DNA from: a virus
Reading direction: 5' to 3' (one strand)
IMG/VR virus record: IMGVR_UViG_3300013737_000003
Length of the DNA: 64,000 nt
Shown: one piece after another, positions 1 to 59,203 of the stretch
Layout: each line of letters opens with the position of its first letter
Numbering within the stretch: the stretch's first letter is position 1
Notes under the pieces: model-generated
Told to the model about the DNA's origin: nothing
Seen by the model: only the letters and a program-made list of their open reading frames with translations
Databases searched by the model: none
Program-made: the position numbers and the translations under genes

Positions 1-1
1 G

Positions 2-1723: not shown

Positions 1724-1994
1724 CCTCGGTATCATGCTGCTCGGCATCGCAGCAGTCATATTCTTCGGTGTGTTTGCAGAAGCCTTCGCATTCGGCTTCT
1801 GGATCACGCTGCTGGCCTACCGGGACTCGTGGGCTAAACTCCGCGAGTTCCACGGACTGAACCCTGTTGCGTGGTTCAAACAAATTCTGGTGTTCGCCCT
1901 GACGGTGCTTCACCAGATGTGGATGCGTATCGTTGACCCTGTTTACCAATCCCTGCCCTACCGTTCATGGAGAAGAGATCGTGACGAAGAGTAA
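1713..1994 (+). CDS. Small membrane protein
   Basis: GGAGG upstream of ATG 1713; two hydrophobic segments; start overlaps the previous gene's end. Confidence 0.6.
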   Translation: MLLDLGIMLLGIAAVIFFGVFAEAFAFGFWITLLAYRDSWAKLREFHGLNPVAWFKQILVFALTVLHQMWMRIVDPVYQSLPYRSWRRDRDEE

Positions 1995-3642: not shown

Positions 3643-3646
3643 TACC

Positions 3647-4288
3647 GTGGTATCAAAGATACGAGTGTTGGTGGCGTGTGAATGCTCCGGCGTTGTTCGC
3701 CGGGCATTTAACCGGCATCCGGATGTAGACTGCTGGTCGAGCGATGTCAAACCGGCTGAAGACAACGACCCCCGTCATCTGAAGGGGGATGTGCGTCAGT
3801 GGCTGGACGATACTGCCTGGGACCTGATCATCGCCCATCCGGAGTGCCGGTTTCTCTGTTCGAGCGGTATCTTCCGTAACAAGAACGATCCAGCTCGGCA
3901 GGCGAAGACTGAGGAAGCCTACGAGTTCTTCATGACGTTCGCCCGGCTAAGATGCAGGTATTGCATCGAGAACCCGGTCGGGATCGTCAGCACCCGCTGG
4001 CGCAAGCCCGATCAAGTGATCCAGCCCTACCATTTCGGTGAGCCGGATTCGAAGAAGACCTGCCTGTGGTTGCAGGGCGTCCCTCTCCTGAGAGGGACGA
4101 AGTTCCATTTACCAGACCGCTGGATCGACGGGAAGCCCCGCTGGCGCAATCAGACGGACGCGGGGCAGAACAAGCTGCCCCCGGGCGTCGAACGCTCTGC
4201 AAAGCGTGCCAGAACGTATCCGGGCATCGCTGAGGCGATGGCCGACCAGTGGTTACCTGTCATTCGAAAAGAGAAAGGGATGATGTGA
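3647..4288 (+). CDS. Phage DNA cytosine methyltransferase-like protein
   Basis: N-terminal VLVACECSGVVRRAF, WDLIIAHPEC (catalytic P-x-C-like), IENPVG and KKTCLWL motifs typical of this small phage MTase family. Confidence 0.7.
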   Translation: MVSKIRVLVACECSGVVRRAFNRHPDVDCWSSDVKPAEDNDPRHLKGDVRQWLDDTAWDLIIAHPECRFLCSSGIFRNKNDPARQAKTEEAYEFFMTFARLRCRYCIENPVGIVSTRWRKPDQVIQPYHFGEPDSKKTCLWLQGVPLLRGTKFHLPDRWIDGKPRWRNQTDAGQNKLPPGVERSAKRARTYPGIAEAMADQWLPVIRKEKGMM

Positions 4289-4740
4289 TGAGTGTACGAG
4301 CGAAAATGAAAGTGACCAAAGTCGAACCGGCTGTCCACGAAGGAGATGGGCAGGGAGGGACTGTCTACCTGCATCCGGTGATCAGCGGTAGCCCCGAGAA
4401 TGAACAGTTCTACAAATACACGCCGGGAGGCAATCTCACGTTGAGCACCATCAACGGACGAGCGTTCGAACAGTTCCATGAAGGGGAGGAGTACTACATC
4501 GACATCTCGCGGGCCGGTGACTTCCCTTTGAGTGCTGCGGGATCAAGCGAGCGGATGTTGCAGTGGTTCAACTACGGACACCTGCCGTCGCATCTGCAGA
4601 AAGCATCCAAGCCGTTCTATGATCTGGCTCTGCATGTGATTGAAACGACTGATCCGGGACCAGAACGAACGGTCGCATTGCGAAAGTTGCTGGAGGCGAA
4701 AGACGCCGCTGTTCGGGCGAAGCTCAACCCCGGGTGTTGA
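4288..4740 (+). CDS. Two-domain phage protein; C-terminal HLPxHL...ERTVALRKLLEAKD helical hairpin (possible nucleotide sponge)
   Basis: ATGA overlap with the upstream gene; both halves resemble common small phage proteins. Confidence 0.7.
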   Translation: MSVRAKMKVTKVEPAVHEGDGQGGTVYLHPVISGSPENEQFYKYTPGGNLTLSTINGRAFEQFHEGEEYYIDISRAGDFPLSAAGSSERMLQWFNYGHLPSHLQKASKPFYDLALHVIETTDPGPERTVALRKLLEAKDAAVRAKLNPGC

Positions 4741-4768
4741 TACCGCACCTATTATTTTTTTTAACCGA

Positions 4769-4786
4769 AGAGAGAGAGAGAGAGAG
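4769..4786 (+). repeat. (AG)9 dinucleotide microsatellite, with a T8 run at 4755-4762 just upstream
   Basis: Directly visible; ends 7 nt before ATG 4794. Confidence 0.95.
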
Positions 4787-4793
4787 GGATGTT

Positions 4794-5264
4794 ATGAACA
4801 ACAAACAAGTGATATGGATGGACGGCGAGTACCGCATTGTGGACACGAGAAATATCCCGGTCCATCATGAAGTCACGGAGCACCGGCTCGGAGGAGGGGT
4901 GTGCAACACATTCACGACGATTCAGGCGATCGGTGCCCCAGGCACAGGCGGGGCCTGCGTGAGCTACCTGATCAGCTATCCGGAGAGGGAACCAATGATT
5001 CCCGGTGATGTTCCACGAACGTATCAGGTTCTGCAGTTCCAGAACGGCAACCCGGTCGAGGGGATCAATGGCATCACCAACGAGGCTCTGCTTGCGATCG
5101 TGATTGATCGTCTATCGATGTGGCAGGAGACCATGAATCGATCGCGAGAGAACGCTCTTGCGATCACTCACCTGCAGGAGGCGATGAACTGGCTGGCTCG
5201 CCGGACGATACTGCGATCCCGGGCAGGGGTCGAGGGTCAGCCAAACGTCCCGATGCCTTCATAG
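4794..5264 (+). CDS. tad1: Tad1-family (Acb2/Tad1) anti-defence cyclic-nucleotide sponge
   Basis: GAPGTGGA..SYLI, LQFQNG, NGITNEALLAIVIDRL, SRENALAITHLQEAMNWLARR..RAGVEG align with recalled Tad1 motifs (GPGGA, IKFQKG, LLEIVRDRL, SRENACALTHVEEALMW). Confidence 0.8.
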   Translation: MNNKQVIWMDGEYRIVDTRNIPVHHEVTEHRLGGGVCNTFTTIQAIGAPGTGGACVSYLISYPEREPMIPGDVPRTYQVLQFQNGNPVEGINGITNEALLAIVIDRLSMWQETMNRSRENALAITHLQEAMNWLARRTILRSRAGVEGQPNVPMPS

Positions 5265-6006
5265 CATCCAGAATCATCTGAGCGATATCATCGTCAGACC
5301 AATTGGGGTCGGCATCATTTGCCGACCTCATTGCATTGATATACTCATCCATCTGCTTCTTTGCGACAGCCGCGTGAGTACTGATGACTCTCAGTTCGGC
5401 GAGCGACCCGGCCAAATCTGGCCGGGCAACTCGTCGCGAGATTAGTTCAATCAACAGCCTCTTGCTCGGACTCACAGTCATTAGAGGGCTCCAGTTCTGC
5501 CTTCGCGAAAAGCCAGATGTTCTCGCAGATAGACGACTGCTCTCTGCCAGACAACATGTAGGGGCATTCACGCACACCAGAGGAGTGAACTCCACCCGGC
5601 AAGCGATTTTATCCTCTGTCATCGTCGTCTGCCACTCGGTCCCGTTCGAGTCTTCGACACAGAACTCGCGGTCCTTGGGTTCGTACTGGACGAACCTCTC
5701 ATGTTCAGACTTCTCATAACGGGCGTAGAACTCCATGTTCTCCATCAGTTCACGGATATGCTCCTCGTAACTTTTCTCAAGCGAGATCGGTGGTGCTATC
5801 GTGTAGTTGTTACCCACCGTGAGCGGAGACACCCAGACGTTGGCTGAGTACGAACCTTCAGCAGAACCCCAGTCGAACCCAACGGTCTCCGGCAAAGGCA
5901 AAGGCGGTGGCACTTGATAGATGTGCTTGGCGAACTGTTCGTCAAGTTTGACGCCGTACTTACGCATCAATTCGGCAGCACGACGACTTCGTTCTTCCAA
6001 GGTCAT
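5164..6006 (-). CDS. Hypothetical protein
   Basis: 280-aa ORF in a leftward gene string; 3' end overlaps tad1 by ~100 nt, so boundaries are uncertain. Confidence 0.4.
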   Translation of the reverse strand: MTLEERSRRAAELMRKYGVKLDEQFAKHIYQVPPPLPLPETVGFDWGSAEGSYSANVWVSPLTVGNNYTIAPPISLEKSYEEHIRELMENMEFYARYEKSEHERFVQYEPKDREFCVEDSNGTEWQTTMTEDKIACRVEFTPLVCVNAPTCCLAESSRLSARTSGFSRRQNWSPLMTVSPSKRLLIELISRRVARPDLAGSLAELRVISTHAAVAKKQMDEYINAMRSANDADPNWSDDDIAQMILDAMKASGRLADPRPLPGIAVSSGEPASSSPPAGE

Positions 6007-6015
6007 GGTCTTCTC

Positions 6016-6219
6016 CTACCAAGGCAGCTCACCGAGGTACTTGTGAACAATGTGGACAACTTTGAGAACGAAGTTCCAGTCAGACTCTGCTGGGTAGAGG
6101 CGAGAAGTAACGGTCCTGCCTCTGGACACAGTCACCAGATAGTCATCAGGCCCCGACTTCCTTACAACGCATTCGATGCCGCATTTACGCGCGGCTTCTT
6201 CAACTTGTTCCGGAGTCAC
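6016..6219 (-). CDS. Hypothetical protein
   Basis: GGAGG upstream; GTGA-type overlap with the neighbouring gene. Confidence 0.55.
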   Translation of the reverse strand: MTPEQVEEAARKCGIECVVRKSGPDDYLVTVSRGRTVTSRLYPAESDWNFVLKVVHIVHKYLGELPW

Positions 6220-6626
6220 TTCGGGCCTCCCGGCGGAGCAGCGTAAAGAGGAATCATCTTGCCTTTGCAGGTGCCGATGTCAACGCCTCGATAAGACACA
6301 TGCTCGGGCTGAGCTGTTTGCTCTTTGATGTCAGCGAAGTCGATCTTGCCGCATGTGCGGCACACCCATGCATACGGCGAGACTGGCTGCGTCTCCCGAG
6401 GGGTTTCAGCAAGGATTTGTTCAACCTGCTTAATGCAACCTCGCACTGTCAGCACGCTGTCTGCGTATACGTCCAAACCATCAAACCGTTTGCATTTGGC
6501 TTTCCAAAGATCGATCAGTTCCTGCAGCCTCTGTGATTGACTGACAGTAGAGTCTTGGATGCTCACTTCAACCTCTCCAACGCGGCTAGATAAGGAGCAG
6601 CGATGCGAGCGAGTTTTCGCTCGCAC
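6216..6626 (-). CDS. Hypothetical protein with CxxC
   Basis: ORF in the leftward string; WVCRTCG motif. Confidence 0.55.
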   Translation of the reverse strand: MRAKTRSHRCSLSSRVGEVEVSIQDSTVSQSQRLQELIDLWKAKCKRFDGLDVYADSVLTVRGCIKQVEQILAETPRETQPVSPYAWVCRTCGKIDFADIKEQTAQPEHVSYRGVDIGTCKGKMIPLYAAPPGGPK

Positions 6627-6820
6627 CGCCGCGAGATCAGGTACTCAAGGATTGTGTCGTGATGCAGGAAGTCGATCATGTCGTATCCGCACACCAACAC
6701 TGTCGAGACCGTCTCATTCGGGCTGATCTGGGTAGTCAATACTAATGAGACGTATCCCGACGACTCCTGGCATAGGGATGCTAAGATGTCCGACTTCTGC
6801 GACTCTCTGGAGTTGTTCAT
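6563..6820 (-). CDS. Hypothetical protein
   Basis: ORF only; overlaps both neighbours. Confidence 0.35.
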   Translation of the reverse strand: MNNSRESQKSDILASLCQESSGYVSLVLTTQISPNETVSTVLVCGYDMIDFLHHDTILEYLISRRCERKLARIAAPYLAALERLK

Positions 6821-7001
6821 CAGTCAGTTTCTCCGGGAACGACACAATCCCTAACGACTCATCTCTCTCATAGTCCGTTTGCATCTTGTCCGATGCCGGG
6901 GACAGGGTCTTGCGGAGCATCAGGTCGGCCAGCTTGCTGACCTCCCTCAGGCCCGCATGTCGGGCTACATTGATTCTGGCAATCAGTTCGTACTGGAACA
7001 T
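6714..7001 (-). CDS. Hypothetical protein
   Basis: ORF in the leftward string. Confidence 0.4.
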   Translation of the reverse strand: MFQYELIARINVARHAGLREVSKLADLMLRKTLSPASDKMQTDYERDESLGIVSFPEKLTDEQLQRVAEVGHLSIPMPGVVGIRLISIDYPDQPE

Positions 7002-7590
7002 CGGTCACGCCTTTCTCGCGTTCAAGCTGACTGTTGACGAGCCAGAGGATACTGTACCCTCCGAGATCGAGAACAGTCTCATCAATACTCTCTGCCACTT
7101 CAGCCCCGTTCTGACGGAGCTGACGAATGCGTCTCACCTTGTCACTCATGCGAGCGAGGATGCCGACAGAAGGAGATGCCGTTGGGTCGAGTTCAGGCGG
7201 CTCAAACACTGAGCTGCCGTAGTCTTTGTTCTTCTTCAGCAGAAGCTCAACCAGTCCGAGGCCGGTGTGGGCAATCCTGCACTGGATGTCACCGCGATCA
7301 CCGTCAAGGGCCTCCTCGATGATGTGTGAGACCGGCTTGTCGGCCAGACGGGTCGGAGGAGTCGATGGGTTGTATGGCACCTTGTCGACGAAGTCGGAGT
7401 AGATGTTGCGCGCTTCGTTGATGAGGTCGACGACGCGGTTATGGGCAGGACTCAACCCCCCTCCTTCCAGCGTCACATGCTGCATCACAGAGGTCATCCA
7501 TTTCTCGATCTCGACCTGTCGGTTGATATCTCGACGCCGTGACCAATCAATGTTGTTATTGCATCCCAGTCCCGTGCCCATGCTCTCCAA
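6868..7590 (-). CDS. Protein with DUF1599 (nucleotide-modification-associated domain 1)-like domain
   Basis: LLLKKNKDYGSS...GILARMSDKVRRI...ESIDETVLDLGGYSIL motif. Confidence 0.65.
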   Translation of the reverse strand: MESMGTGLGCNNNIDWSRRRDINRQVEIEKWMTSVMQHVTLEGGGLSPAHNRVVDLINEARNIYSDFVDKVPYNPSTPPTRLADKPVSHIIEEALDGDRGDIQCRIAHTGLGLVELLLKKNKDYGSSVFEPPELDPTASPSVGILARMSDKVRRIRQLRQNGAEVAESIDETVLDLGGYSILWLVNSQLEREKGVTDVPVRTDCQNQCSPTCGPEGGQQAGRPDAPQDPVPGIGQDANGL

Positions 7591-7769
7591 CTCCCGATAG
7601 AAATTCTTGATTCGATCCGATCCGGGTAACCCTCAACATGATAGATCACCCACTCACCTTCGCGCCGCAGCACACGTCGAGCGACTCCATTCGCATAAAG
7701 AACATCGCCCGCGACCGGGTCTGTCTGAGGTCTTCTCGGCTGCATCGTCCACCTCCGGGCGGGCATCAT
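7494..7769 (-). CDS. Hypothetical protein
   Basis: First ORF left of the operator at 7777; no motif. Confidence 0.35.
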   Translation of the reverse strand: MMPARRWTMQPRRPQTDPVAGDVLYANGVARRVLRREGEWVIYHVEGYPDRIESRISIGSWRAWARDWDAITTLIGHGVEISTDRSRSRNG

Positions 7770-7776
7770 CCCACAG

Positions 7777-7791
7777 TGACAGATTTTGTCA
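7777..7791. promoter_or_regulatory. 15-bp palindromic operator-like site, copy 1 (TGACAGATTTTGTCA)
   Basis: Matches four other intergenic sites; exact reverse complement of the copy at 8322. Confidence 0.75.
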
Positions 7792-7880
7792 ACACTGTTC
7801 TGTCAAGATCAGCCGTGAATTCGGACGGGGACTCGCGGGCAGGACCGGGCAGTCCGGGGCTGCCCGGGGAAGCCCGGGCA

Positions 7881-8224
7881 GGTGTCACAACACCCCGGCT
7901 ACCCCCGCCTCCCCTGTGACACCACCGTAAGTGACAACTCACGCTGCCGTGACACCTCTCACGATGTGAGGCTACCGAAGTGTGACACCATGCTGTTTGA
8001 AGGTGTCACGACAGCTCGACCCCCTGTGACAGCATAGAGCAGGCTTGACTGGTTTAGCAGCAGAATCCAGCGTGTCTTGCCAACCCTTCTCCTTATACCC
8101 CCTTTGGGGGTATAAGGATAAGGGTTTGACTGGCCACACCAGTTTCACCGACTATGCCAACCAAACCATAGCAAGAGAGAAAGGTGTCACGACATGACGG
8201 GGGTGGTGGCCCGGGGTGTGACAG
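7881..8224. repeat. Iteron-like GTGACA/TGTCAC cluster (putative replication origin)
   Basis: About nine GTGACA(CC) hexamers in both orientations (7883, 7916, 7931, 7949, 7982, 8004, 8026, 8185, 8218) in a gene-poor region upstream of the primase. Confidence 0.6.
8091..8117. other. Perfect 12-bp hairpin CCTTATACCCCC-TTT-GGGGGTATAAGG
   Basis: Directly visible; imperfectly extendable to 8082-8126. Confidence 0.85.
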
Positions 8225-8321
8225 CTTGTTTGGCACACCCGGTCATGTGCCCCGGGTGCCCGGGGCAATTCGATTGGTTTTTATTTTTGAAAAGCCTCCC
8301 TCCCGCAGCGGTGGCACCTTC

Positions 8322-8336
8322 TGACAAAATCTGTCA
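8322..8336. promoter_or_regulatory. 15-bp palindromic operator-like site, copy 2 (TGACAAAATCTGTCA)
   Basis: Upstream of the primase gene. Confidence 0.75.
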
Positions 8337-8410
8337 TCAATCTGTTGACAACCCTTTCGGTGCAAGTCATACTCCCGCCCCTCAACCCTCAACCCAGAAG
8401 AGATCGCAGA

Positions 8411-10699
8411 ATGCACACCGTGTTTTGGCAGACCGCGTGCATGCTTGCTTCGCTCGGGATCAAAGTCTTCCCTGTTGGATGGGCATCGAAGGCTCCATAT
8501 CACTCGACCGACTGGCGTACACTGGCAACGAATGATGTCAACAAACTGTCGCAGATTCTTCCGCAGGCATCGTACGGTCTCGCTGCCGTACTTGGACCCG
8601 GCTCTGGCATCATGGACGTGGAGTATGACTCCGAGTTCGGTGCCAACACCTGGCGAGAACTGCATCGCGAAGTACCTGAAGTTCGAACCGTCGCCTACCA
8701 GTCTCACCGAGGCATACACCGCTGGTTCCGATGGTCGCCCGAACTAGCGACACTCGGCAAGACGATCCCGAAGGTCAGAGGCATTGAAGTCCGACTCGGC
8801 TCGGACACCAAAGGCATCTACTCGGTAGTCCCGCCCAGCGCCCATCCATCAGGCGGGTGGTATCAATGGCTCCCCGGGTGCGCCCCGTGGGAAGTCGCTA
8901 TCGCTCCCTTGCCTCACCACCTTCTCGAAGCCTTCACCGCTGTTGTCCAGACTCATTCGAAGTCCTCCTGCGAAGTCACGCAGGAAGGCGATGACTGGGT
9001 GCCGGAGCCCGGCCAGAGACACCAGTACATGCTGAGACTGACTCATCTCCTTGCAGGCACTCTTCGCCTGCCTCGGGAGCTGGTCTATGAAATGATGGTG
9101 CCCTTCAGTCAGCACGTTGGCAAGTTCGACGATCTTGGTGATGATAAGGCCGAGCGAGAACTGAAAGACATGATCGGCACTGTCCAGAGACCGCAGGTTC
9201 CGGAAGCGATCCTCCGTGACGTTGACTTCGGAGCCATCTATGAGACAGCGAATACAATCCTGCAACAGCAGAAGGTTGAGCAGATGCAACTGCGTGAGCA
9301 GACATACCTGCCAACCAATGTGTTCCCATCCTGGCTTGAGCAATTGAGCCAGGTGGCGAGGCAGTGCCAAATGCCTCGCCACTTTATTCTGATGACTGCC
9401 CTGACGGTCGCGTCAGCAGCCATCGGCTGCGGAGCCCGAGTGAGGATGAGCATCGATCAGATGCCAACGGGTCTGCAGCTCTACACACTTGGCGTCGGTG
9501 AGAGTGGGAGCGGTAAGTCTCGTGCGTTGAACCGGATGACCGACATCTTCCGAACCAACCCGAACTTCGCTACCGACGCCACCACGGAAGCCCTGCGGAG
9601 TGCGTTGAATGTCAATCCTCGCGGTGTACTGCTGAAAGTGGTTGAGGGGAAGCAGTTCACCCGAATGCTGGGACGATATTCCGGCTCCGCAGGGCAAGCC
9701 CCTGACAACAGTCTTCTGCTCGAAGCATGGTCAGGTGACCCCATTGTTGTGATGCGACAGGATGCCAAGAAGAACCTGCGTATCGACAACCCGTTCCTCT
9801 CGGTGGCTGCAGCAATCCAGCCACACAACCTCGGTTCCTTCTCGGCAGATGACATCCTCGAAGGGTTGATGCAGCGCATGTGTGTCTATGCGGGAGACGA
9901 GGTGCCAAGCACGCTCGATCCGAAAGCAGGGACACAGTTTTGCAATGGGATGAAGACCTTCACCGATACGATCATGCGCCTGCAGACACTTCGCCCCTTC
10001 GTCTATAAGTCGGCGATGGACGCCGTGGTCGCATACACTGACTCACGACAGAGCCTTCAGCCGGTCGAACTGGTGCTGACAGATGACGCCCGAGGGCTGT
10101 GGGTCCAATACTCGCAGTGGAAGCGGAGTGATGCCTTGCAGAGCATGTGGGTTGAGGGACACCCATTCCGCAACGACCTTGTGAGACATGCGGAGATCGC
10201 TCTGCGGATTGCGGCGATCCTCATGCTGTGGGAGATGGCAGAGCATCCTCAGTTCGAGAACTGCTACCTGCATCATCACCCTTCAGCATGGGTCGACAGG
10301 AAATATCTTGAACGAGCGATTGTGCTGGTAGAATGGTTGTGGAGTGAGAAGCAAAGAATCATGCTTGATCTGGCCGATGATCGCTTTGCCCGAGCGATGC
10401 AGCGAGGCGGCATGATCAAAGTCGACACCTCACTTAAAGATATGCTGAAGCGTCTTGCTGAACGTCGTTGTAACCTCCTCACCAATCGGTTGAAAGGAAA
10501 GAAAGAATGGTCTTTAAGGGACTACTACCGACACCTCCGGATGAACGTCGACGAAGCGAACCAGGAAGTCGCCCTGTTCCTTCAGCACGGGCTCGTGAAG
10601 CAGTCAAACAGCCGGTCCCATGCCGTCAACAGCTTGATTACTACGCAATACGAGTTCGCAATGGAAATGATCCGACCGGCGAACCACGAGTCCCGCTGA
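8411..10699 (+). CDS. Bifunctional primase-polymerase (Prim-Pol) fused to a DUF3987-like P-loop domain
   Basis: N-terminal GIKVFPV, GIMDVEYD, QSHRGIHRWF, VVPPSAHPSG; C-terminal Walker A GESGSGKS and DATTEAL; ATG 8411 preferred over the 8345 track start. Confidence 0.85.
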   Translation: MHTVFWQTACMLASLGIKVFPVGWASKAPYHSTDWRTLATNDVNKLSQILPQASYGLAAVLGPGSGIMDVEYDSEFGANTWRELHREVPEVRTVAYQSHRGIHRWFRWSPELATLGKTIPKVRGIEVRLGSDTKGIYSVVPPSAHPSGGWYQWLPGCAPWEVAIAPLPHHLLEAFTAVVQTHSKSSCEVTQEGDDWVPEPGQRHQYMLRLTHLLAGTLRLPRELVYEMMVPFSQHVGKFDDLGDDKAERELKDMIGTVQRPQVPEAILRDVDFGAIYETANTILQQQKVEQMQLREQTYLPTNVFPSWLEQLSQVARQCQMPRHFILMTALTVASAAIGCGARVRMSIDQMPTGLQLYTLGVGESGSGKSRALNRMTDIFRTNPNFATDATTEALRSALNVNPRGVLLKVVEGKQFTRMLGRYSGSAGQAPDNSLLLEAWSGDPIVVMRQDAKKNLRIDNPFLSVAAAIQPHNLGSFSADDILEGLMQRMCVYAGDEVPSTLDPKAGTQFCNGMKTFTDTIMRLQTLRPFVYKSAMDAVVAYTDSRQSLQPVELVLTDDARGLWVQYSQWKRSDALQSMWVEGHPFRNDLVRHAEIALRIAAILMLWEMAEHPQFENCYLHHHPSAWVDRKYLERAIVLVEWLWSEKQRIMLDLADDRFARAMQRGGMIKVDTSLKDMLKRLAERRCNLLTNRLKGKKEWSLRDYYRHLRMNVDEANQEVALFLQHGLVKQSNSRSHAVNSLITTQYEFAMEMIRPANHESR

Positions 10700-12321
10700 C
10701 ACACATCTACGTTCGCGTATCGACTCGCGAGCAGGCATTCAAGGGCATCTCGATCGAGACGCAGACGGAGAAGTGTCTGCGGTATGCCAAGGCCCACGGT
10801 CTCCAACTCGGCACAGAAACCAACTGCGGAATACCGGGAGTATTCATCGACGGCGGCAAGTCTGCCACGAAGTACTCGGCACTGACTGATCGCCTTGGCG
10901 GGGCTGCATTTGTTGCCGCGATCCGTCCCGGAGATCATGTCATCTTCACCTCCCCACACCGAGCGTTTCGAAACCTGAGACAGGCAGAGAATCAGCTCTA
11001 CGAGTGGGAGCAGGAGAGAGTTACTGTCCACTTCACTGACCACGGCATCCGCACAGACACAGCGAACGGTCGCATGATCATGCAATTGCTGTTCGTTGTC
11101 GCTGAGTGGAAGTCGAGGATCATGGCGGCACGTATTGCCGAAGGTACAGCCCTCAAAAACAAGGAGCTGATCCCTGAAGCCAAACCTGAACCAGTAACGA
11201 CTACGGAGCGAGTCACTGCTGATGACACGCTCAGCCAAATCTGGCTGGACGAGTGGGAGAAGCGATACAACCCTCCGCCGCTGAAGGTGACTGGCAAGGT
11301 GCGAGCCTACGTGCGAGTGAGTAAAGCCAGTCAGAGCGTTGATGCTCAGAAGGAAGTGATTCGCCGATGGCATGAGACCAGCGAGTACAAGCATCTCGAT
11401 CTCCTTTTCTACATCGACCACGGGAAGTCAGCGTACTCCAGCGACTTCAAGAAACGCAGGGAAGGGAAACGACTGCTGACTCTCGCACAGGAAGGCGACA
11501 TCGTCGTCTCAGTACGAGCTGACCGCATGATTCGATCGGTGTCAAACATGGTCGACGTCATCAAGGACTTCGAAGCCAAGAAGGTCACCGTCATTCTTCT
11601 GGACATCAACCTGCGAACCGATACCCGCTTCGGAAAGATGCTGCTCGGCATGCTGGGGTTTGTGGCCGAACTGGAGTCTTACGAGATCGACATCAGCAGC
11701 AACTCGGCTGTGGCCACCTCCGTTCGAGCCAAGGGGTTGCCTGTCAGTAAGATTCCATCTTTGATGCTGAAGCCCAGTGCAATGCGAAAGGTGTCGTGGA
11801 TGAGGGCGTGTCTGCCCGAAGACCTCTGGATCGGTGCTGTGTGGAGGCACACTCAGAACATTGCTTCGGGAGTCAAGGTCAGCACATCCTGTCGAGCGGT
11901 CAACCGGTGGCTGTGCGATCAACTGCAAATCCCGCAGTACATGTTTCTCAACGGGAGTCAGTCATACAAACAGTACGGCAAGACTATCACGCCGCACCGA
12001 CTGCGAGACAAGACGCCCAGAGCAGGGCAGATCATTGCAGACATTGATGCCCAGCATGATCCGACGCCGGGGGCGATAGCCCTGCGAAACAAACTCCGGA
12101 AATTCAAGCAGGATAAACGTGTCTACGGATGGTTTGTTGAATACAACGGCAAAAAGGAGTTCAATCACTTCCAGCGATACTGGAAGCGGATTGTTGAAGA
12201 GAAAGACTCGTTGAAGATCAGCAAGGCAGTCACCATCATAGATGACCTGCTCAAGCTATATCACACGACCGGCACCTATTGCGTTGAAGAAGTTCCGGAC
12301 AGCCGAAGTGCTGAAGAATAG
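10507..12321 (+). CDS. Serine recombinase with two tandem resolvase catalytic domains (start uncertain)
   Basis: Two YVRVS motifs (IYVRVSTREQ; AYVRVSKASQ), each followed by D-x-G-x-S, R-x-x-R and T-x-x-G-R/K-M resolvase motifs. Confidence 0.85.
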   Translation: MVFKGLLPTPPDERRRSEPGSRPVPSARAREAVKQPVPCRQQLDYYAIRVRNGNDPTGEPRVPLTHIYVRVSTREQAFKGISIETQTEKCLRYAKAHGLQLGTETNCGIPGVFIDGGKSATKYSALTDRLGGAAFVAAIRPGDHVIFTSPHRAFRNLRQAENQLYEWEQERVTVHFTDHGIRTDTANGRMIMQLLFVVAEWKSRIMAARIAEGTALKNKELIPEAKPEPVTTTERVTADDTLSQIWLDEWEKRYNPPPLKVTGKVRAYVRVSKASQSVDAQKEVIRRWHETSEYKHLDLLFYIDHGKSAYSSDFKKRREGKRLLTLAQEGDIVVSVRADRMIRSVSNMVDVIKDFEAKKVTVILLDINLRTDTRFGKMLLGMLGFVAELESYEIDISSNSAVATSVRAKGLPVSKIPSLMLKPSAMRKVSWMRACLPEDLWIGAVWRHTQNIASGVKVSTSCRAVNRWLCDQLQIPQYMFLNGSQSYKQYGKTITPHRLRDKTPRAGQIIADIDAQHDPTPGAIALRNKLRKFKQDKRVYGWFVEYNGKKEFNHFQRYWKRIVEEKDSLKISKAVTIIDDLLKLYHTTGTYCVEEVPDSRSAEE

Positions 12322-12489
12322 TCGGCCACCGACTCTGACTCCCGAGAGCCGCACAAGCACTGTGCGGCTCTTTTTGTTGATACGCACTCCGCGCCGATAC
12401 CAGTTCCGGATGGTATCATCGGTGACTGCGTATCCTTGCTTTGCAAGCAGGCAGGCGATCTCTTTTGCCTGATACTTTCGTTCTCTCAT
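12256..12489 (-). CDS. DUF1580/excisionase-like HTH protein
   Basis: TIRNWYRRGVR...VRLSGVRVGGRLFFSTSAVRNF, MerR/Xis-like winged HTH; convergent with the recombinase. Confidence 0.7.
   Translation of the reverse strand: MRERKYQAKEIACLLAKQGYAVTDDTIRNWYRRGVRINKKSRTVLVRLSGVRVGGRLFFSTSAVRNFFNAIGAGRVI
12345..12375 (+). terminator. Rho-independent terminator after the recombinase
   Basis: GAGCCGCACA/TGTGCGGCTC stem followed by a T-tract. Confidence 0.75.
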
Positions 12490-12630
12490 AACCGGCTCCA
12501 ACCGACAAAACCGAAAAGCGTGAACAAACCGAAACTGTCCTCTTTGTAGCCACAACGGTCTTTTCACGCAAGCAGACATTTGGTGGTATGCACACGATAG
12601 TTCCCCCAGAACCAACGGAGCAGAGATCAG

Positions 12631-13920
12631 ATGTCGACAGTAATTACACCAGGAAGTTTTGCCTCCCTCTCACAGAGCGTATTCGGTGATGCCACCCCTG
12701 CGCAGCCGCAGGGTGGAATGCCAGGCACCGTTCCATCTGGGGGAACGATTCCACCAGCGGCTCCGGCCCAGCCGCCCGCTGGTGGTTTTCCTCCTCAGTA
12801 TCCGCAGTACCCACAATATCCGTCCCAGTACCAGCAACCTCCTGTGACACCTTCGGTTCCGAGCGTGACACCGGCGGTTGCACCCCCCGTGGACCCCCCC
12901 GTAAACCCCGGCGCCCCGTACCACCCCCCCGCAGCACCCGCCCCGCAACCCGTCCCGCCCCGAGCTGTCCCTCCTCCCTACCCGCCAAAACCCGTCACAC
13001 CCCCCCCCCCCCGCGGGACCCCTCCGGCTTATGCACCCCCGGTCGCCCCGCGCCCTCGGACAGTGCTTGATTCTTACGTGGCACGCGGAGCCCTTACGCG
13101 AGAGCAAGCCGATCAGATCGGTGACGACTTCCGCCTGTTCGAATACGTATTGCAGGAACCAGAACCACAGCAGCCAAATCTGTCACAGGGGCAGACCGGT
13201 GTGACTCCAACCACCCCGGTCGCCCCTGTGACACCTCCTGCAGCCCCTGCTGCCCCTGAGTCACAGATGCTGGCAACAGCCCGCACTTTGGTTCAGCAAG
13301 GGATTCTGATTGATCAGGGAGGATTCTTTGTTGCGAAGTCTGCAGAGATGCAGCCGCTCGCAGCAGCGGCCAACCAGGAACAATTCAAAGTGCTTCAGGC
13401 GGAAGCTGCCAAGCAGGCGCAAACCGCGTTCAATCCGGTAATTGAACAGATGAAGCAACAGATGGAACAACTGAAACAGCAGGTGCAGGCGGTCCAGCCG
13501 AAAGCCTACGACTCGTGGCTCCAGCAACACAGAGAGTATCTGTATGCCAAGGATGTCGCAGGCAACATCACGCAGACCCGTACTCCCGCTGGTGACGTTT
13601 ACTACCGAGCCTGGAACGAAGCTCAGTCTCGCGGTCTCAATGATGAGTCCGTGCTGCATGAGATCGCCAAGAGCAAGGTCGAAGGATTCTGGATGGCCAG
13701 TGGAGCTGCGGCACAGCAGCCAGCACAGCCACCTCAGACCTTCATGCAGGCAGCAGCCGCTGCTCCCTACTCTCCTAACCCAGGCTTCAACGCCCCGGGA
13801 ACTACGATCAGTCAACAGACACCAAATGGGTACAACATGCCGGGTGTGAATAATCAGGGGATGCCCGACTGGGATTACCTGATGAACCAGCATCTGGCCG
13901 GTAACCCGCAAATTCGATGA
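12631..13920 (+). CDS. Pro-rich protein, likely capsid scaffold
   Basis: Immediately precedes the capsid gene; disordered N-terminus and coiled-coil middle. Confidence 0.6.
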   Translation: MSTVITPGSFASLSQSVFGDATPAQPQGGMPGTVPSGGTIPPAAPAQPPAGGFPPQYPQYPQYPSQYQQPPVTPSVPSVTPAVAPPVDPPVNPGAPYHPPAAPAPQPVPPRAVPPPYPPKPVTPPPPRGTPPAYAPPVAPRPRTVLDSYVARGALTREQADQIGDDFRLFEYVLQEPEPQQPNLSQGQTGVTPTTPVAPVTPPAAPAAPESQMLATARTLVQQGILIDQGGFFVAKSAEMQPLAAAANQEQFKVLQAEAAKQAQTAFNPVIEQMKQQMEQLKQQVQAVQPKAYDSWLQQHREYLYAKDVAGNITQTRTPAGDVYYRAWNEAQSRGLNDESVLHEIAKSKVEGFWMASGAAAQQPAQPPQTFMQAAAAAPYSPNPGFNAPGTTISQQTPNGYNMPGVNNQGMPDWDYLMNQHLAGNPQIR

Positions 13921-13931
13921 AAGGTTGAAAC

Positions 13932-15125
13932 ATGCCTGGACAGTCGCTTGTCCCCGCAACGGTAGACGGTCACGTGAATCTCGCACGCGACCTTGCTCCC
14001 AAGTATTGGAAGATGGCTTCGGACCTGACCGTTCGAAACCATCTGACGTTCTATCTCCTGCGAAAGTACGGAACGTTGACCTTCAACGCCCGTTCGCATA
14101 CGCAGGTGTGGAACGCGAAGATTCGTCAGCCGCAGGTTCTCCCTCTCGCGGACAACGTTCCGCTGGAGTTTGTGAACCAGGATACCGACATCCAATTCTA
14201 CATTGGATTCAAAGGTATGGGTGCCGCTGACTTCATGCCTGAACTGGAATACCTGCTCGCGCAAGGTGCTCCGGAGCAGATCACTGATCGCTTCAAGCGG
14301 AAGTCTGTCGACATGGCAAACAGTGTCGACGAAGCACTGCAGAAGTCGTTCTACTCGGACGGCAACGACCCGTTGAATCTGTACAACTACGTGGGCATCA
14401 AAACCCCACTGGCGTACAACGCGGGTTCTGCGACCGTGTTCAACATCACCCACAAAATCGCTCAGCCCAACGGCTCCTATGCCGGTCAGAGCTGTGCTCT
14501 GGCTGCAAACGGTGGTACGTGGTCGGCAGCGATGGGTACGTTCCCGAACGGTAACCTGGCGAAGGACTGGCCGTTCGGCCAGGGTTCACCGGAGTACGAC
14601 GGAACGGCTCCGATGATCTGGAACTACCACAGCTCCGCGTTCGACACGGGCGTGACCAGTTCCACATCAGCAATGATGGCTTGGGAGACCAACGCGGTTC
14701 GCGTTATCTCTGAAGCAGCCATTGCGATGATGCACCGAGGTGGATACCGCAACAACGGTGGTGCTCCTCTCGTGTGTGTGATGGCATCTGAAATGTTCGT
14801 CGCTCTGAAGAACTCCTTCCGAGCACAGAATCGACACAGCATGCCGTGGCAGGACGGAGACTTCGGTTTCCCGAACCAGGATACTTTGATGGTCGATGGC
14901 GTGCTCTGCATGTCAGACTACAACGTGCCTGCAGGCGAAGCCTACATGTGGGCTCCACAGTACGTCGAGATGTTCAACATCCATCCGGACATCTACAAGG
15001 CATACGGTCCCGAGTACAGCATGCAGCAGCGCGGATACTTGTACATGAGCACTGCCTACGGCAACTTCAAGTACCAGCCCAAGTATCTGGCTCGCTTCGT
15101 GAGCCGTACAACTGCTGCTCCGTGA
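13932..15125 (+). CDS. Major capsid protein
   Basis: 397 aa; position scaffold-MCP-decoration-terminator; HK97-like features such as N-terminal helix, E-loop strands and C-terminal YGNFKY strand. Confidence 0.75.
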   Translation: MPGQSLVPATVDGHVNLARDLAPKYWKMASDLTVRNHLTFYLLRKYGTLTFNARSHTQVWNAKIRQPQVLPLADNVPLEFVNQDTDIQFYIGFKGMGAADFMPELEYLLAQGAPEQITDRFKRKSVDMANSVDEALQKSFYSDGNDPLNLYNYVGIKTPLAYNAGSATVFNITHKIAQPNGSYAGQSCALAANGGTWSAAMGTFPNGNLAKDWPFGQGSPEYDGTAPMIWNYHSSAFDTGVTSSTSAMMAWETNAVRVISEAAIAMMHRGGYRNNGGAPLVCVMASEMFVALKNSFRAQNRHSMPWQDGDFGFPNQDTLMVDGVLCMSDYNVPAGEAYMWAPQYVEMFNIHPDIYKAYGPEYSMQQRGYLYMSTAYGNFKYQPKYLARFVSRTTAAP

Positions 15126-15193
15126 TCTGATCTGACCACAGGTCGGCGTCACTCAGTTTTCTTTCATTCAACCTCCTCACAGGAGAAACATAG

Positions 15194-15721
15194 ATGTCAG
15201 GTATCGCAGGTATTGCACAAGCCCGCCTCGGAGCGAAGAACGTCCTCAAAGACGATTCTTACCTCGGGGCGGAGCGATCGTTCATGGATAAGGATCACAG
15301 CAATCCTGATTCCGTGGCCCCGTTGTCCTCTCGCATCATTCGTGCCCGATACGTTCTTAACGATTCGGGCGGCACATTGGACCCCGGCAAGGGCGTCGTC
15401 ATCAAATCCGGAGCACCGAACAAGATTGGCGGATACCACTCTGCCAACGGTCGTTGCGACGGCGTAGTCGACCCGTTCCTCGTCGGAGCAGTGGCTGTCA
15501 ATGATTACTTCTGGCTGATCGTCGATGGTCCGGTGGACGTCGAGATCGGTGCTGGTAATATCACAGCCAATGCGGTTGTTCAGACCATTGGTTCAGGTCT
15601 GTTCGCAGGTGGTACAGCAGGCACTAACACCGTTGGTCACAGCGGCATTGCGGAAGAAGCAGCCAACAGCGGAGCCCGAGCACGAGTTATTTTCAATAAC
15701 CCGTTCTCGGTTGCCCGATAA
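15194..15721 (+). CDS. Capsid decoration/cement-like protein
   Basis: G/A/V-rich beta protein after the MCP; YFWLIVDGP motif; strong RBS. Confidence 0.6.
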   Translation: MSGIAGIAQARLGAKNVLKDDSYLGAERSFMDKDHSNPDSVAPLSSRIIRARYVLNDSGGTLDPGKGVVIKSGAPNKIGGYHSANGRCDGVVDPFLVGAVAVNDYFWLIVDGPVDVEIGAGNITANAVVQTIGSGLFAGGTAGTNTVGHSGIAEEAANSGARARVIFNNPFSVAR

Positions 15722-15758
15722 TTGATCCACTCTTCATGCAGGGTGGCACTGACAGGGG

Positions 15759-15790
15759 ACCCCGGCCAGTTTCGGCTGGCCGGGGTTTTT
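15759..15790 (+). terminator. Rho-independent terminator
   Basis: 11-bp stem ACCCCGGCCAG/CTGGCCGGGGT followed by TTTT. Confidence 0.85.
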
Positions 15791-15927
15791 GAACACAGAA
15801 AGGCGGTGATCCTAAGATGGACGGGCGTCAAACACCTCCTGCCGGAATTCACAGTTCCGCACAGGCGATGAATGTGCAGGCAGGGAATCCAATCCAGATT
15901 CCTTTGAAGACTCCAAAGCGATAGGCG

Positions 15928-16674
15928 ATGAGCCCACTCGACAAGGTTGACTTAGCAGGAGGGGCTCCCAAGGCCCCTCCTGTTTTGGTTTTGAGCAGCG
16001 TATTCCCCGGCAAGGTATGCTGTAAGATGTGCGGACTGCCGGTTCCCCCGGAACAGATCAAGGACGTCAAGAGAGGACTGTGCTATATGTGTGCAGCAGA
16101 CGTTGCGCAGGTCGCAATCGCGATCGCCTCTGACGACAGGACAATCATTCAGCGTACGCCACCGATGTTCGACAAGGTCATCAAAGACCTGCGAGACACA
16201 TCAGGCCCGGCGATCGTCGGCACTGCAGAGGCTCTCCTGCAGGAACTCGGTGGCGAACAGCAGTTGGGTATCCGTATTGCTCAGGACCTCAAGCGAGCCC
16301 GACTCGAACATCTGAGCGAGGACGTCCGCAAGTTCCATGAGCCCGACCTGAAACTCGTAAAGCAGATGCACGAGCTGGTTGTTGGGATTCTTGAAAAGCG
16401 AGACGAGCGGCTCAAGGGACAGAACGAAGACCCGATGGGCGACATGGATGAAGAGTCTCTGATGGCTCTCATCACCCAGGCATCCGAACTTCGGCTTGCA
16501 TCTGACAGAGGTTTCCGCGAGCAGATGCTGCTCATGATCTATGACATGGATCGTGAGCTGTATGAGATCGTACAGGCACACAAGCTGACTGCCGGTATTG
16601 TTCCGCTGCCGTCACAAGCAGACCAGCCGACCGTGCTGGTAGTAGAGCCAGAACATGAGCACAGCCCAGCTTGA
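15928..16674 (+). CDS. Putative terminase small subunit (N-terminal Zn ribbon)
   Basis: Overlaps the start of TerL; CxxC...CxxC; helical C-terminus. Confidence 0.5.
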   Translation: MSPLDKVDLAGGAPKAPPVLVLSSVFPGKVCCKMCGLPVPPEQIKDVKRGLCYMCAADVAQVAIAIASDDRTIIQRTPPMFDKVIKDLRDTSGPAIVGTAEALLQELGGEQQLGIRIAQDLKRARLEHLSEDVRKFHEPDLKLVKQMHELVVGILEKRDERLKGQNEDPMGDMDEESLMALITQASELRLASDRGFREQMLLMIYDMDRELYEIVQAHKLTAGIVPLPSQADQPTVLVVEPEHEHSPA

Positions 16675-18457
16675 CCCCCGAGTCTCTTCGGTACTGTCTC
16701 GCCTGCAGAGCAGTTATCAGACACGAACTGTTCTGCAGGAAGGGGTGAAGGCTGCATCCAAAGTCTACGAACGCAGGATGCAAGCCCTCGAACTGTTTCG
16801 TCCGTTCACATACCAGGATCAGTTCCTGACATGTGATGCGACAGAAGTTCTTGTGCAGGGGGGTACGCGATCAGGGAAGTCCACGGTGATCGCTGCATGC
16901 ATTGCGGCATACGCACTGGACAAATCTGTCTACACATCATACGGGCTCCCGATCCCGATGAGACCTGTGCAGTTCCGTGGTGTGACCACCGGTGAAATCT
17001 GGGTGATCGGTAAACAATCGAATCACGCTTCCACGATCTATCGACTGCTGTTCAAGCCCGGACTGTTTACGATTATCCGAGACCCCGTAACCCGGCAATG
17101 GCGAGCACTGCGACCGGGCGTCATACCGGGAGACGATCAGATTCCCCGAAGCGAGTGGAAGCCTTCGCCTCCATTGATCTATGCCGGTCAATGTGAATTC
17201 GACTGGGAGTCGAAGAAGGCAGAAGAGTTCAAGAAGGCGATCCTGCCGAACGGGTGGAAGATTTGTTTCTATCCATCCAGTGGCCAACCCAAGCGAGGCG
17301 ACCCGGTCCATCGTATCTGGATTGACGAAGAGATCGAGGGCGAGGTCAACTACTACTCGGAACTCCAGTCACGTCTGTCTGACTATCAGGGACGCATCTG
17401 GTGGTCGAGCTGGCCGGACATTTCATGTGCTCCCCTCATGGCACTTCGCGATCGGTGTGATGCTGACCAGGCAAAAGTAGTTCGGGGCGAGAAGCCAAAG
17501 GCCGACTTCGTTCGAATGCGGTTTCGCGGAAGCGACAACCCGATGATCGATGAGAACCAGAAGCGGTTGCGTACTGAAGGGTGGGATGATGCGACACGCC
17601 GCGCTCGCGATGAGGGCGAGTTCGTCATCGACACGATCCAGACATATCCCGAGTTCAGTGCCGCACTGCATGCCGTCGACTACGGTCTGGACAACCCTCT
17701 CAATGACAAGATCACTGAGATACTGCGGATGCGAAACTGGGTCCCTCCCGCCGACTGGCGAGTCGACCTGATACTGGACCCGGGCACGCAGAGTCCCGGA
17801 ATTCTCTGGGGGGCAATCCCTCCGCCGGGGTTATGGCATCGTCCGGACAGTCCAGTCTACGTGATCTACCGGGAATTGACTGGACGATACAACGCCAAAC
17901 AGCTTGCTCTCATGGTCAAAACACTGGAGCCCGGCAGGCAATACTGTCAGTTTGTGATCGACGGAAAGGCCGGAGACCAGACGTCGATGGGGGCTGAACT
18001 GAGCGTGATGCAGTTGTATTCTGCCGCGTTCCGAGAGCAAGGATTGCGGTGCCAGCTTACTGCTGATATGTTTATGCCGGGATCACCGTCGTGGATTACC
18101 CGGTCGATGAAACTCCGGTCGTGGATGGCAACCAGTGCGGAAGGTCGTCCACAGCTACGTATTGTGACCCACATGTGCAGGGAATTGATTCGGCAGTTGT
18201 CCAATAACGTTCGCAAGGTCAGCAAAGAGGATATTCAGGATAAGCCAGCGCCCGGCCAGAAACAGGACTTGATGGTCTGTCTGGAGTATTGGGCGTCACT
18301 CGATCCCTCGTATGTAGCCCCTCCCGCAGGAGGGACCATACTGGAATCGCCTGCTTATCTCCGAGCGGTCGGTGAAGCGGATTGGTTCAACTCGTTGACA
18401 TCACGTCCACAGCAGCAGAAGGGCAGCAACCCTAAAGTCATTTGCGGCATTCCTTAA
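16655..18457 (+). CDS. terL: Terminase large subunit
   Basis: Walker A GGTRSGKS, Walker B RIWIDEE, C-terminal RNase H-like ILDPG motif. Confidence 0.9.
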   Translation: MSTAQLDPRVSSVLSRLQSSYQTRTVLQEGVKAASKVYERRMQALELFRPFTYQDQFLTCDATEVLVQGGTRSGKSTVIAACIAAYALDKSVYTSYGLPIPMRPVQFRGVTTGEIWVIGKQSNHASTIYRLLFKPGLFTIIRDPVTRQWRALRPGVIPGDDQIPRSEWKPSPPLIYAGQCEFDWESKKAEEFKKAILPNGWKICFYPSSGQPKRGDPVHRIWIDEEIEGEVNYYSELQSRLSDYQGRIWWSSWPDISCAPLMALRDRCDADQAKVVRGEKPKADFVRMRFRGSDNPMIDENQKRLRTEGWDDATRRARDEGEFVIDTIQTYPEFSAALHAVDYGLDNPLNDKITEILRMRNWVPPADWRVDLILDPGTQSPGILWGAIPPPGLWHRPDSPVYVIYRELTGRYNAKQLALMVKTLEPGRQYCQFVIDGKAGDQTSMGAELSVMQLYSAAFREQGLRCQLTADMFMPGSPSWITRSMKLRSWMATSAEGRPQLRIVTHMCRELIRQLSNNVRKVSKEDIQDKPAPGQKQDLMVCLEYWASLDPSYVAPPAGGTILESPAYLRAVGEADWFNSLTSRPQQQKGSNPKVICGIP

Positions 18458-18474
18458 CCCCCCAGGCGGAAACA

Positions 18475-18795
18475 ATGCAATCAAAACAATTTGCGATCGG
18501 TGATATTGACGGCGTTCGGTTCTACTACATTCTCGGAGACACAGTGTGGTTCTACGAGAACTGCGCTCTGGACTCCACCCCCTTCGTCGGGATCATCGTT
18601 GCAATCAACGAAGACAACATGGTTGACTTGCAACTCATGACTTCTCTTGGGCAGATCAAGACAGCCCGTCGAGGAGTCTGCCTGCAGGGAGATGATCGCC
18701 TCGCTCAGGCATCGTATAAAAACAAAGGGTGTTGGAGACCTCGACCGACTGTCGCCGAGGTGCACCAGTACTACAGTTCATTTACCGCAAAGTAA
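18475..18795 (+). CDS. Hypothetical protein
   Basis: ORF between TerL and portal. Confidence 0.65.
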   Translation: MQSKQFAIGDIDGVRFYYILGDTVWFYENCALDSTPFVGIIVAINEDNMVDLQLMTSLGQIKTARRGVCLQGDDRLAQASYKNKGCWRPRPTVAEVHQYYSSFTAK

Positions 18796-18802
18796 TTGAC
18801 AC

Positions 18803-58333: not shown

Positions 58334-58366
58334 GTAGTTACTCCTCTGTGTTACGGATAAGCCAAC

Positions 58367-58393
58367 GCTGCTCAGCCGGTGAGACTGAGCAGC
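58367..58393. other. Intergenic 9-bp hairpin GCTGCTCAG-N9-CTGAGCAGC
   Basis: Directly visible between genes. Confidence 0.7.
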
Positions 58394-58402
58394 CTTGGGT
58401 CA

Positions 58403-59179: not shown

Positions 59180-59203
59180 GGACGTCACTCCTCAGGGTTT
59201 GTT

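Follow-up and report, generated by a model that had tools for sequence, protein, structure and literature searches.

Can a single polypeptide that carries two resolvase-type catalytic domains work as a site-specific recombinase, and on which DNA would it act? In an ordinary serine recombinase, a dimer cuts both strands of one crossover site, and a tetramer exchanges the strands by subunit rotation. The question is raised by a gene on the plus strand of the IMG/VR virus record IMGVR_UViG_3300013737_000003, at positions 10507-12321 (stop codon included) of the 64,000-nucleotide stretch that was analysed as a whole and is called the window here. The gene encodes a tandem serine recombinase of 604 amino acids, as indicated by its open reading frame, two Pfam PF00239 matches, and homologues with the same architecture. 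In this study, the conserved residues and the predicted structure incline us to believe that it is a working site-specific serine recombinase, each polypeptide of which has two catalytically competent domains of the resolvase type.

Two resolvase-type domains in one polypeptide

The first-pass annotation of this DNA, made from the letters alone, had described two complete resolvase-type domains, each with the motif YVRVS, a linker of about 50 residues between them, and a basic C-terminus of about 190 residues. The description was borne out. Pfam PF00239 (Resolvase) matches the protein twice (whole-protein E value 4.5e-47), the YVRVS motif stands at residues 68-72 and 268-272, and the linker and the C-terminus measure 47 and 199 residues, the latter with 34 Lys and Arg against 20 Asp and Glu. 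In PHROGs, residues 67-213 match 'integrase' and residues 262-394 match 'DNA invertase', and a comparison of the two domains with one another gives 30% identity (E value 5e-13). Domain 1 (residues 64-215; 10696-11151, plus strand, like all parts of the gene) was delimited by Pfam, PHROGs, the residue table, the structure model, and selection analysis; its candidate nucleophile is Ser72 (codon 10720-10722), and His151 occupies the position of Asp67. Positions such as S10, D67, E118, and R125 follow the numbering of gamma-delta resolvase. Domain 2 (residues 263-405; 11293-11721), delimited by alignment, model, and residue table, aligns to residues 5-137 of gamma-delta resolvase, has Ser272 (codon 11320-11322) as its candidate nucleophile, and keeps the full D-R-x-x-R signature (D339, R340, and R343). 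Between them lies the linker (residues 216-262; 11152-11292).

The structure was predicted with AF2 on a 34-sequence alignment, the residues of which give the model numbering; the 63 N-terminal residues lie outside the model. The model (mean pLDDT 72.7) contains two cores like that of resolvase, and helix E is long in both (model residues 125-155 and 311-346), so both domains have the fold and the helix that mark the serine recombinase superfamily. With VIA-align, model residues 2-149 match the catalytic domain of Gin (Z 15.4, root-mean-square deviation (rmsd) 2.0, 124 residues aligned), and model residues 200-329 match that of TP901-1 integrase (Z 16.6). In the linker, pLDDT falls below 50 for model residues 157-177, and a single short helix (179-191) comes after this low-confidence stretch. 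Across 127 family proteins its length is 34-75 residues, with a median of 43 and never less than 34, which fits a linker that needs to span a distance. A prediction of the complex of domain 1 with domain 2 scored 0.06, below the mark, and is evidence neither way.

The C-terminal domain (11722-12318) matches no known family. Folded alone by AF2, it gave a pLDDT of 76.8, a pTM of 0.74, and eight helices in an all-helical arrangement. No Pfam family was found in the C-terminus of any of the 34 members, and neither the window protein nor the 34 C-terminal sequences matched the Recombinase (PF07508) or zinc-ribbon (PF13408) family at E values up to 0.1 to 1, in agreement with the first-pass annotation, which could not recognise these domains either. 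A Foldseek search of the PDB returned nothing at E<=0.001, and the ESM Atlas gave TM scores of at most 0.33 and no convincing relative. The best VIA-align score was Z 4.3, and the weak matches (Z 3.4-4.3) were mostly helix-turn-helix (HTH) DNA binders, including the DNA-binding domain of Sin. This weak resemblance is suggestive, and the domain presumably binds DNA; it may also be remotely akin to domains of the large serine recombinases. The C-terminal alignment has one invariant residue, a Pro, and no conserved cysteines. Shorter proteins bearing this domain were searched for and none were found.

Are both active sites intact? Residues Y6, R8, S10, Q14, Q19, D36, S39, R45, R68, and R71 are invariant in both domains of 34 close relatives, wherever the residue is present. 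In the wider set, R8, S10, R68, and R71 were found in both domains of 113 of the 147 two-domain clusters. First domains failed in 26 clusters, 25 of them through N-terminal gaps from truncated gene calls and one through a change of Ser to Pro; second domains deviated in 8 of the 147, mostly by R71 to Gly. Studies of Tn3 resolvase mutants have shown that Y6, R8, S10, D36, R68, and R71 are essential and that Q14, Q19, and R45 are nearly so, while mutants of D67 and E118 retain substantial cleavage and recombination, and R119 and R125 influence DNA binding and synapsis, not chemistry (PMC2794168). In the window protein, neither domain lacks any of these six essential residues. Selection was compared with L001, a relative with 88% identity. 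The ratio of nonsynonymous to synonymous divergence (dN/dS) was 0.049 in domain 1, 0.043 in domain 2, 0.17 in the linker, and 0.065 in the C-terminus, with a synonymous divergence (dS) of about 1.1. Strong purifying selection (dN/dS about 0.05) acts on each of the two domains, and the earlier view of two intact catalytic domains holds across the family.

The two domains are conserved in different ways. The position of E118 is Glu in 34 of 34 second domains (144/147 in the wider set), and it is Lys or Arg in 32 of 34 first domains and variable in the first domains of the wider set. The position of R125 is Arg in all 34 first domains (145/147 in the wider set) and mostly Ser, Leu, or Met in the second domains of the close family. 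Asp is found at the D67 position in 144 of the 147 second domains, and this position varies in the first domains. In the gamma-delta dimer, the two E118 side chains are in contact across the dimer interface (PMC2794168). Since Lys or Arg would here stand opposite Glu (in the window protein, Lys202 opposite Glu390), the sequences would favour pairing of a domain 1 with a domain 2 over pairing of like with like.

The reading frame is open for 604 codons (10507-12321, plus strand), and ATG 10507 is the sole in-frame ATG, GTG, or TTG upstream of domain 1. From this start, the gene overlaps by 193 nt, up to position 10699, the upstream gene for a primase/helicase with Prim-Pol and DUF3987 domains (8345-10699, plus strand; Pfam PF09250 and PF13148). 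Between the window and L001, dS in the overlap is 0.11 for the recombinase frame and 0.05 for the primase frame, compared with values of about 1.0-1.3 over the recombinase gene and of 0.72 for the primase gene. This collapse of synonymous divergence would be expected if both frames are translated in the overlap, and it favours a start at ATG 10507. The resulting N-terminal extension of 63 residues (10507-10695, plus strand), recognised from the start analysis and dS, is basic and Pro-rich, lies within the 3' end of the primase gene in the other frame, and has no Pfam family match. Its first peptide, MVF-x-G/R-(L/I)LP, is kept in relatives at 36-88% identity, and a ribosome-binding context, GAAAGGAAA-N5-ATG, precedes the MVF start in the window, L001, L094, and L095, and in part in L003. 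L094 and L095 (36-48% identity) have the same extension, likewise overlapping a primase gene. The extension is confined to the subclade of the window; other clades begin 4-5 codons ahead of Y-x-R-V-S. We also considered CTG 10696, which forms a CTGA overlap with the stop codon of the primase and lines up with Met1 in other clades, and rejected it for ATG 10507 on the dS collapse and the conserved MVF start with its ribosome-binding context. The start at ATG 10507 is thus supported by these comparisons, and the coordinates first given for the gene were exact.

The public gene call of this contig (P0003) has 415 residues and begins at Met190, which removes most of domain 1, and the 193-nt primase overlap explains why it is short. 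Automatic calls often drop domain 1 elsewhere too: in about 25 of the 147 cluster representatives, the serine and the strand that begins the domain are missing (the region affected in the window is 10507-11074). Databases therefore under-report the double-domain architecture.

A double-domain family beside the known serine recombinases

A profile search of 1.84 billion cluster representatives gave 234 protein clusters (50% identity) at E<=1e-30, and two resolvase domains were present in 147 of the best 150 of these 234. Ten clusters sampled across the range all had two PF00239 matches and no other family. A word-indexed search added 26 relatives of 497-547 residues, and IMG/VR held further relatives on contigs of 64-68 kb. 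The database names of the relatives are generic ('DNA invertase Pin-like', 'recombinase family protein'), and 28 cluster members that were looked up yielded one NCBI accession only, a partial protein from a metagenome-assembled genome (MAG). When both catalytic domains were searched with tblastn in GenBank phages (50,697 records) and PLSDB plasmids (72,556 records), only single-domain hits were obtained, and no place covered 80% of the query. A full-text literature search, the coverage of which leaves out subscription-only papers, found no description of tandem resolvase domains. This is therefore a large family that is apparently undescribed and known from metagenomes only.

In a tree of 284 domains, every second domain fell on one side of a split with 0.94 support, which indicates that the doubling is old, that it predates the family, and that it was not repeated. 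The profile of domain 1 has the TP901-1 integrase catalytic domain as its best solved match (E value 1.2e-22), and that of domain 2 has gamma-delta resolvase. Separate origins of the domains, one from an integrase-type and one from a resolvase-type ancestor, are not claimed, because the differences between the PDB profile scores are too small.

How does the protein compare with known systems? The small serine recombinases (gamma-delta and Tn3 resolvases, Gin and Hin, and Sin) share with it the fold and the long helix E. Domain 2 aligns with gamma-delta resolvase end to end with all catalytic residues kept, and the whole 183-residue gamma-delta chain superposes on model residues 200-494 (Z 16.1, rmsd 6.7), the helical C-terminal part lying here as the HTH does in resolvase. 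However, these enzymes follow a plan of one catalytic domain and a short HTH_7-type C-terminus within about 180-210 residues. The window protein has 604 residues, another complete catalytic domain ahead of domain 2, and a C-terminus of 199 residues instead of about 45, without an HTH_7 or other family match. The inverted repeat described below is a candidate for its site. The large serine integrases (TP901-1, Bxb1, PhiC31, and SPbeta) are likewise phage-encoded and 500-600 residues long; a small accessory gene adjoins the tandem gene here, and domain 1 is closest in profile to one of their catalytic domains. In contrast to them, the window protein has no Recombinase domain, zinc ribbon, or conserved Cys pairs, the model of its C-terminus is all-helical, and no prophage or att sites were found in the scanned species genomes.

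The IS607-family TnpA proteins resemble the locus in that a module of the MerR/HTH_17 type goes with a resolvase catalytic domain. A second likeness is that both the position of the DNA-binding part and the build of the multimers are unconventional, as reported for TnpA (PMC6188088) and as proposed here. However, TnpA has one catalytic domain with the HTH joined to its N-terminal side, whereas here the HTH is encoded by a separate convergent gene beside two catalytic domains, and the element is a phage of 62-69 kb rather than an insertion sequence. In DNA invertase systems (Hin, Gin, and Mpi), the recombinase gene adjoins a segment that inverted crossover sites flank and that occurs in both orientations. 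At the present locus, a conserved inverted repeat lies about 280 nt downstream of the gene, and the contigs, which would hide rare variants, had it in one orientation (16 native and 0 inverted).

Proposed mechanism, candidate sites, and rival explanations

The tandem recombinase is always encoded together with a small convergent gene at the border of the head operon. In the window, this is a Xis/HTH_17-like gene of 77 codons on the minus strand (12256-12489). It shares 66 nt at its 3' end with the recombinase gene and has homologues in L001, L094, L003, L095, L004, and L092. The small genes are mutually homologous by alignment and overlap the 3' end of the recombinase by 22-104 nt; the L092 copy matches Pfam PF12728 (HTH_17), and the window copy gives a weak DUF1580 match only. 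The head-gene operon starts behind it (12631-15125, plus strand) with a Pro/Gln-rich scaffold-like gene of 429 codons and a major capsid gene of 397 codons, as judged from a weak PHROG major head match and the conserved order. The order of tandem recombinase, convergent small gene, scaffold-like gene, capsid gene, a gene of about 175 codons, and, further on, terminase is kept in L001, L003, L004/5, L092/93, L094, and L095/96. In L090, the recombinase also adjoins head genes, but divergently. The comparison of these loci indicates that an HTH_17-type gene is a real conserved partner of the recombinase, as the first-pass annotation had suspected from a convergent Xis-like HTH. That of directionality factor, which it put forward as a possibility, is one of several possible roles; the partner may also be a second DNA-binding subunit or a regulator.

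In the mechanism that we propose, the pair of serines that acts at one site would come from a domain 1:domain 2 pair, and a synaptic complex with four active sites would consist of two chains. Domain 2, which keeps Asp67 and Glu118 and in the close family has mostly lost Arg125, precedes the only sizeable C-terminal domain, which presumably binds DNA. Domain 1, which keeps Arg125 of helix E, has no DNA-binding domain of its own and has Lys or Arg at the Glu118 position. This complementary asymmetry suggests that the enzyme should read an asymmetric site. The linker of at least 34 residues would either span the dimer or tether the rotating halves. Because the recombinase is always encoded with its convergent HTH_17 partner at the head-operon border, it most likely acts near this border on the DNA of its own phage, a tailed one of 62-69 kb.

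A candidate site lies there. A 25-nt inverted repeat, the arms of which are 80% complementary, starts 276 nt past the recombinase stop; both arms were located by repeat search and family comparison. The left arm (12597-12621; core TTCCCCCAGA at 12601-12610) lies in the 5' untranslated region, 29 nt ahead of the ATG of the scaffold-like gene. The right arm (12725-12749; core TCTGGGGGAA at 12736-12745) lies in codons 32-40 of this gene, covers P-S-G-G codons, and forms a 19-bp near-palindrome. The core pair CCCCCAGA / TCTGGGGG thus brackets the ribosome-binding site and the first 36 or so codons, and the cores TTCCCCCAGA and TCTGGGGGAA occur once per strand in 64 kb. The same geometry was found in all 11 family genomes examined (28-88% recombinase identity), with the core CCCCCAG / CTGGGGG, the left core 12-31 nt before the start codon, and the right core 74-155 nt after it. 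Among 21 IMG/VR contigs with the exact 17-mer of the right arm, 16 carry the repeat pair, with the tandem recombinase gene upstream wherever the locus extends far enough, and the other five are unrelated sequence. The repeat sequence is absent from L090 and L092, more distant members of the family. The 9-bp centre of the right arm is invariant, and its outer half-sites, read from the alignment, co-vary between clades (GTTCC/GGAAC, GCTCC/GGAGC, and ACTCC/GGAGT). As these half-sites change through different amino acids, selection appears to act on the nucleotides. From the sequence, the repeat could equally be a protein-binding DNA site or an mRNA hairpin or long-range stem.

Integrated copies were looked for in one genome from each of 185,579 species. 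The pattern scan found one tandem member only, in a Planctomycetaceae MAG, where it lies on a contig of 3.5 kb with a coverage of about 1x; as a positive control, a scan of this type recovered 11 tandem members from IMG/VR contigs. When 401 Planctomycetota genomes were searched with a C-terminal-domain profile, the sole match was again this contig. These results, and the clustering of related contigs at 62-69 kb, argue against lysogeny by integration as a common state, but the hosts may be unsampled. The assignment of a Planctomycetota-type host is weak, its basis being the MAG bin and faint DUF1580 and DUF1599 matches. A near-identical 66-kb contig from a coral metagenome, which is the likely source run, spans positions 1-20000 of the window at a depth of 57 without any joint (Logan contigs), and small joints in the Logan contigs of the relatives reflect divergence. 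The relatives occur in lagoon, sludge, and aquatic runs.

Several other explanations of the locus can be weighed with these results. We consider it somewhat unlikely that the protein is simply a phage integrase that integrates at a host attB and excises with the Xis-like HTH protein as directionality factor, its second catalytic domain taking the place of the recombinase and zinc-ribbon domains. The PHROG 'integrase' match and the TP901-1 likeness of domain 1, the adjoining excisionase-type gene, and a size close to that of serine integrases suit this idea, but it has to meet the lack of integrated copies beyond the 3.5-kb MAG contig, contig sizes like those of complete free genomes, the continuity of the coral contig through the region, the absence of Recombinase and zinc-ribbon domains, and the fact that no repressor was recognised among the window genes scanned. 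An invertase or regulator that flips or binds the 100-180 bp segment between the repeat arms, and so turns the late (head) operon off, appears less likely still. The recombinase/HTH pair always adjoins the repeat, the core geometry is kept in the 11 genomes and 16 contigs, and the dyad-symmetric right arm, with its co-varying outer half-sites and invariant centre, is as expected of a recombinase site. However, the predicted inverted junction had 58 matches in IMG/VR, none of them in a family genome, compared with 16 native contigs (contigs would hide rare variants), and inversion in silico opened no alternative reading frame. The spacing is short for synapsis, L090 and L092 lack the repeat sequence, and the same complementarity gives a predicted long-range mRNA stem over the ribosome-binding site, with a z-score of only -1.6. 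Integration, inversion, or cassette shuffling had been put forward at first as roles of the enzyme; integrated copies and the inverted form of the repeat were both searched for, and none were found.

The remaining alternatives concern the protein itself. If one domain were a non-catalytic structural or regulatory module, a single serine per chain would cut. Domain 1 does depart at D67 (His) and E118 (Lys or Arg) and has no DNA-binding domain, but neither residue is needed for chemistry, domain 1 is constrained as strongly as domain 2, and the serine and all Tn3-essential residues are kept in both domains across more than 110 clusters, which makes a dead domain quite improbable. There is next to no chance, in our view, that a frameshift or read-through in the assembly fused two neighbouring recombinase genes. 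The public call that starts inside domain 1 could hint at this, but the primase overlap accounts for it, independent assemblies, drawn from many samples and studies, have the same unbroken frame, purifying selection acts on the linker, and 147 of the best 150 clusters have both domains. The gene is thus a single one, as it was first annotated.

Our preferred reading, a working recombinase with two competent domains per chain, has its own difficulties, and the following points weigh against it. His replaces Asp67 in domain 1 of 33 of the 34 close relatives; as D67 is dispensable for chemistry in Tn3 resolvase, this is no argument for a dead domain. Structure prediction, which had been suggested as a check on a covalent pseudo-dimer, returned the two resolvase cores, but the relative arrangement of the catalytic domains was not confidently predicted (pTM 0.40). 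We know of no precedent for one presumed DNA-binding domain that serves two catalytic domains. Two domains of a single chain, if they bound one site together, would have to turn 180 degrees away from each other in spite of the tether. All 16 IMG/VR repeat contigs and every locus examined are in one orientation, and the conserved repeat could equally be an mRNA structure. As for the role of such an enzyme, our rough split gives the largest share, still a minority, to integration and excision, and smaller shares, equal to each other, to inversion or regulation at the adjacent repeat and to monomerisation or circularisation of replicated genomes.

We tentatively suggest, and would put this a little below an even chance, that the protein represents one more architectural class next to the small recombinases, the large integrases, and the IS607-type transposases, namely a natural serine recombinase that is 'double' within a single chain. 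At an asymmetric site, each strand would be cut by one of the two serines of a chain, and a complete synaptic complex would consist of two chains. If this is true, the linker would tether halves that have to rotate by 180 degrees, and would either limit exchange to a single turn or force another partition of subunits than in resolvase. The natural covalent joining of catalytic-domain pairs, both active sites of which are kept in hundreds of lineages, would then be a ready-made test of the four-subunit rotation mechanism, and it opens the questions of which pairs can be tethered, how far rotation goes, and how an asymmetric pseudo-dimer with one DNA-binding domain reads its site. Genome engineers try to build single-chain recombinases for asymmetric sites. 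The gene is also a marker of phages of 62-69 kb that are widespread in marine, sludge, and freshwater habitats; automatic annotation often shortens its protein to a single-domain 'invertase'.

Neighbouring genes and other features of the window

The window is most of a phage genome. The primase/helicase gene directly upstream is also the neighbour of the recombinase in L001, L003, and L095, and it takes this place in some genomes only. Other replication or modification genes in the window encode a DNA methyltransferase, a DUF2800 nuclease, an Enc34-type single-stranded DNA-binding protein, a family A DNA polymerase, and an SNF2 helicase, and the structural genes include a large terminase besides the weak major-capsid match. 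Within the scaffold-like gene, the 66-kb coral contig differs from the window at 37 positions, all of which fall within 135 nt of the Pro/Gln-rich part (12885-13020); a variable region would explain this, and so would an assembly difference within repetitive sequence.

Upstream of the primase lies a non-coding stretch of 750 bp (7590-8345) that is 87% identical to L001 despite saturated synonymous sites in its neighbours (dS about 0.7-1.1). It contains a 21-bp hairpin at 8082-8126 and six GTGTCAC/GTGACAC repeats, which occur in both orientations, and it is probably an origin, an operator region, or both. The 15-bp palindrome TGACA-N5-TGTCA has five copies in the window (7777, 8322, 46252, 56308, and 57693) compared with 0.09 expected from shuffles, and the copies that were checked are all intergenic. 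It looks like the operator of a phage regulator. The copies near the primase were also considered as recombination sites, and this was rejected because the motif recurs at three other intergenic places in an operator-like manner.

On the minus strand, a 355-residue open reading frame at 54509-55576 matches Pfam Transposase_20 of the IS110/IS116/IS902 family (E value 4e-5). It lies in a low-G+C stretch at 53-55 kb where gene orientation switches, and it may be an insertion sequence inside the phage. At 57417-63587, three to five direct copies of an element of 40-75 nt (85-90% identical) stand ahead of successive minus-strand genes, the open reading frames of which have no BLASTP similarity to one another; the copies look like shared promoter or leader sequences. 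In the structural region, at least five tandem 18-nt units at 21746-21864 encode a Pro/Thr/Glu-rich repeat (PTPIPEPTP...) within an open reading frame.

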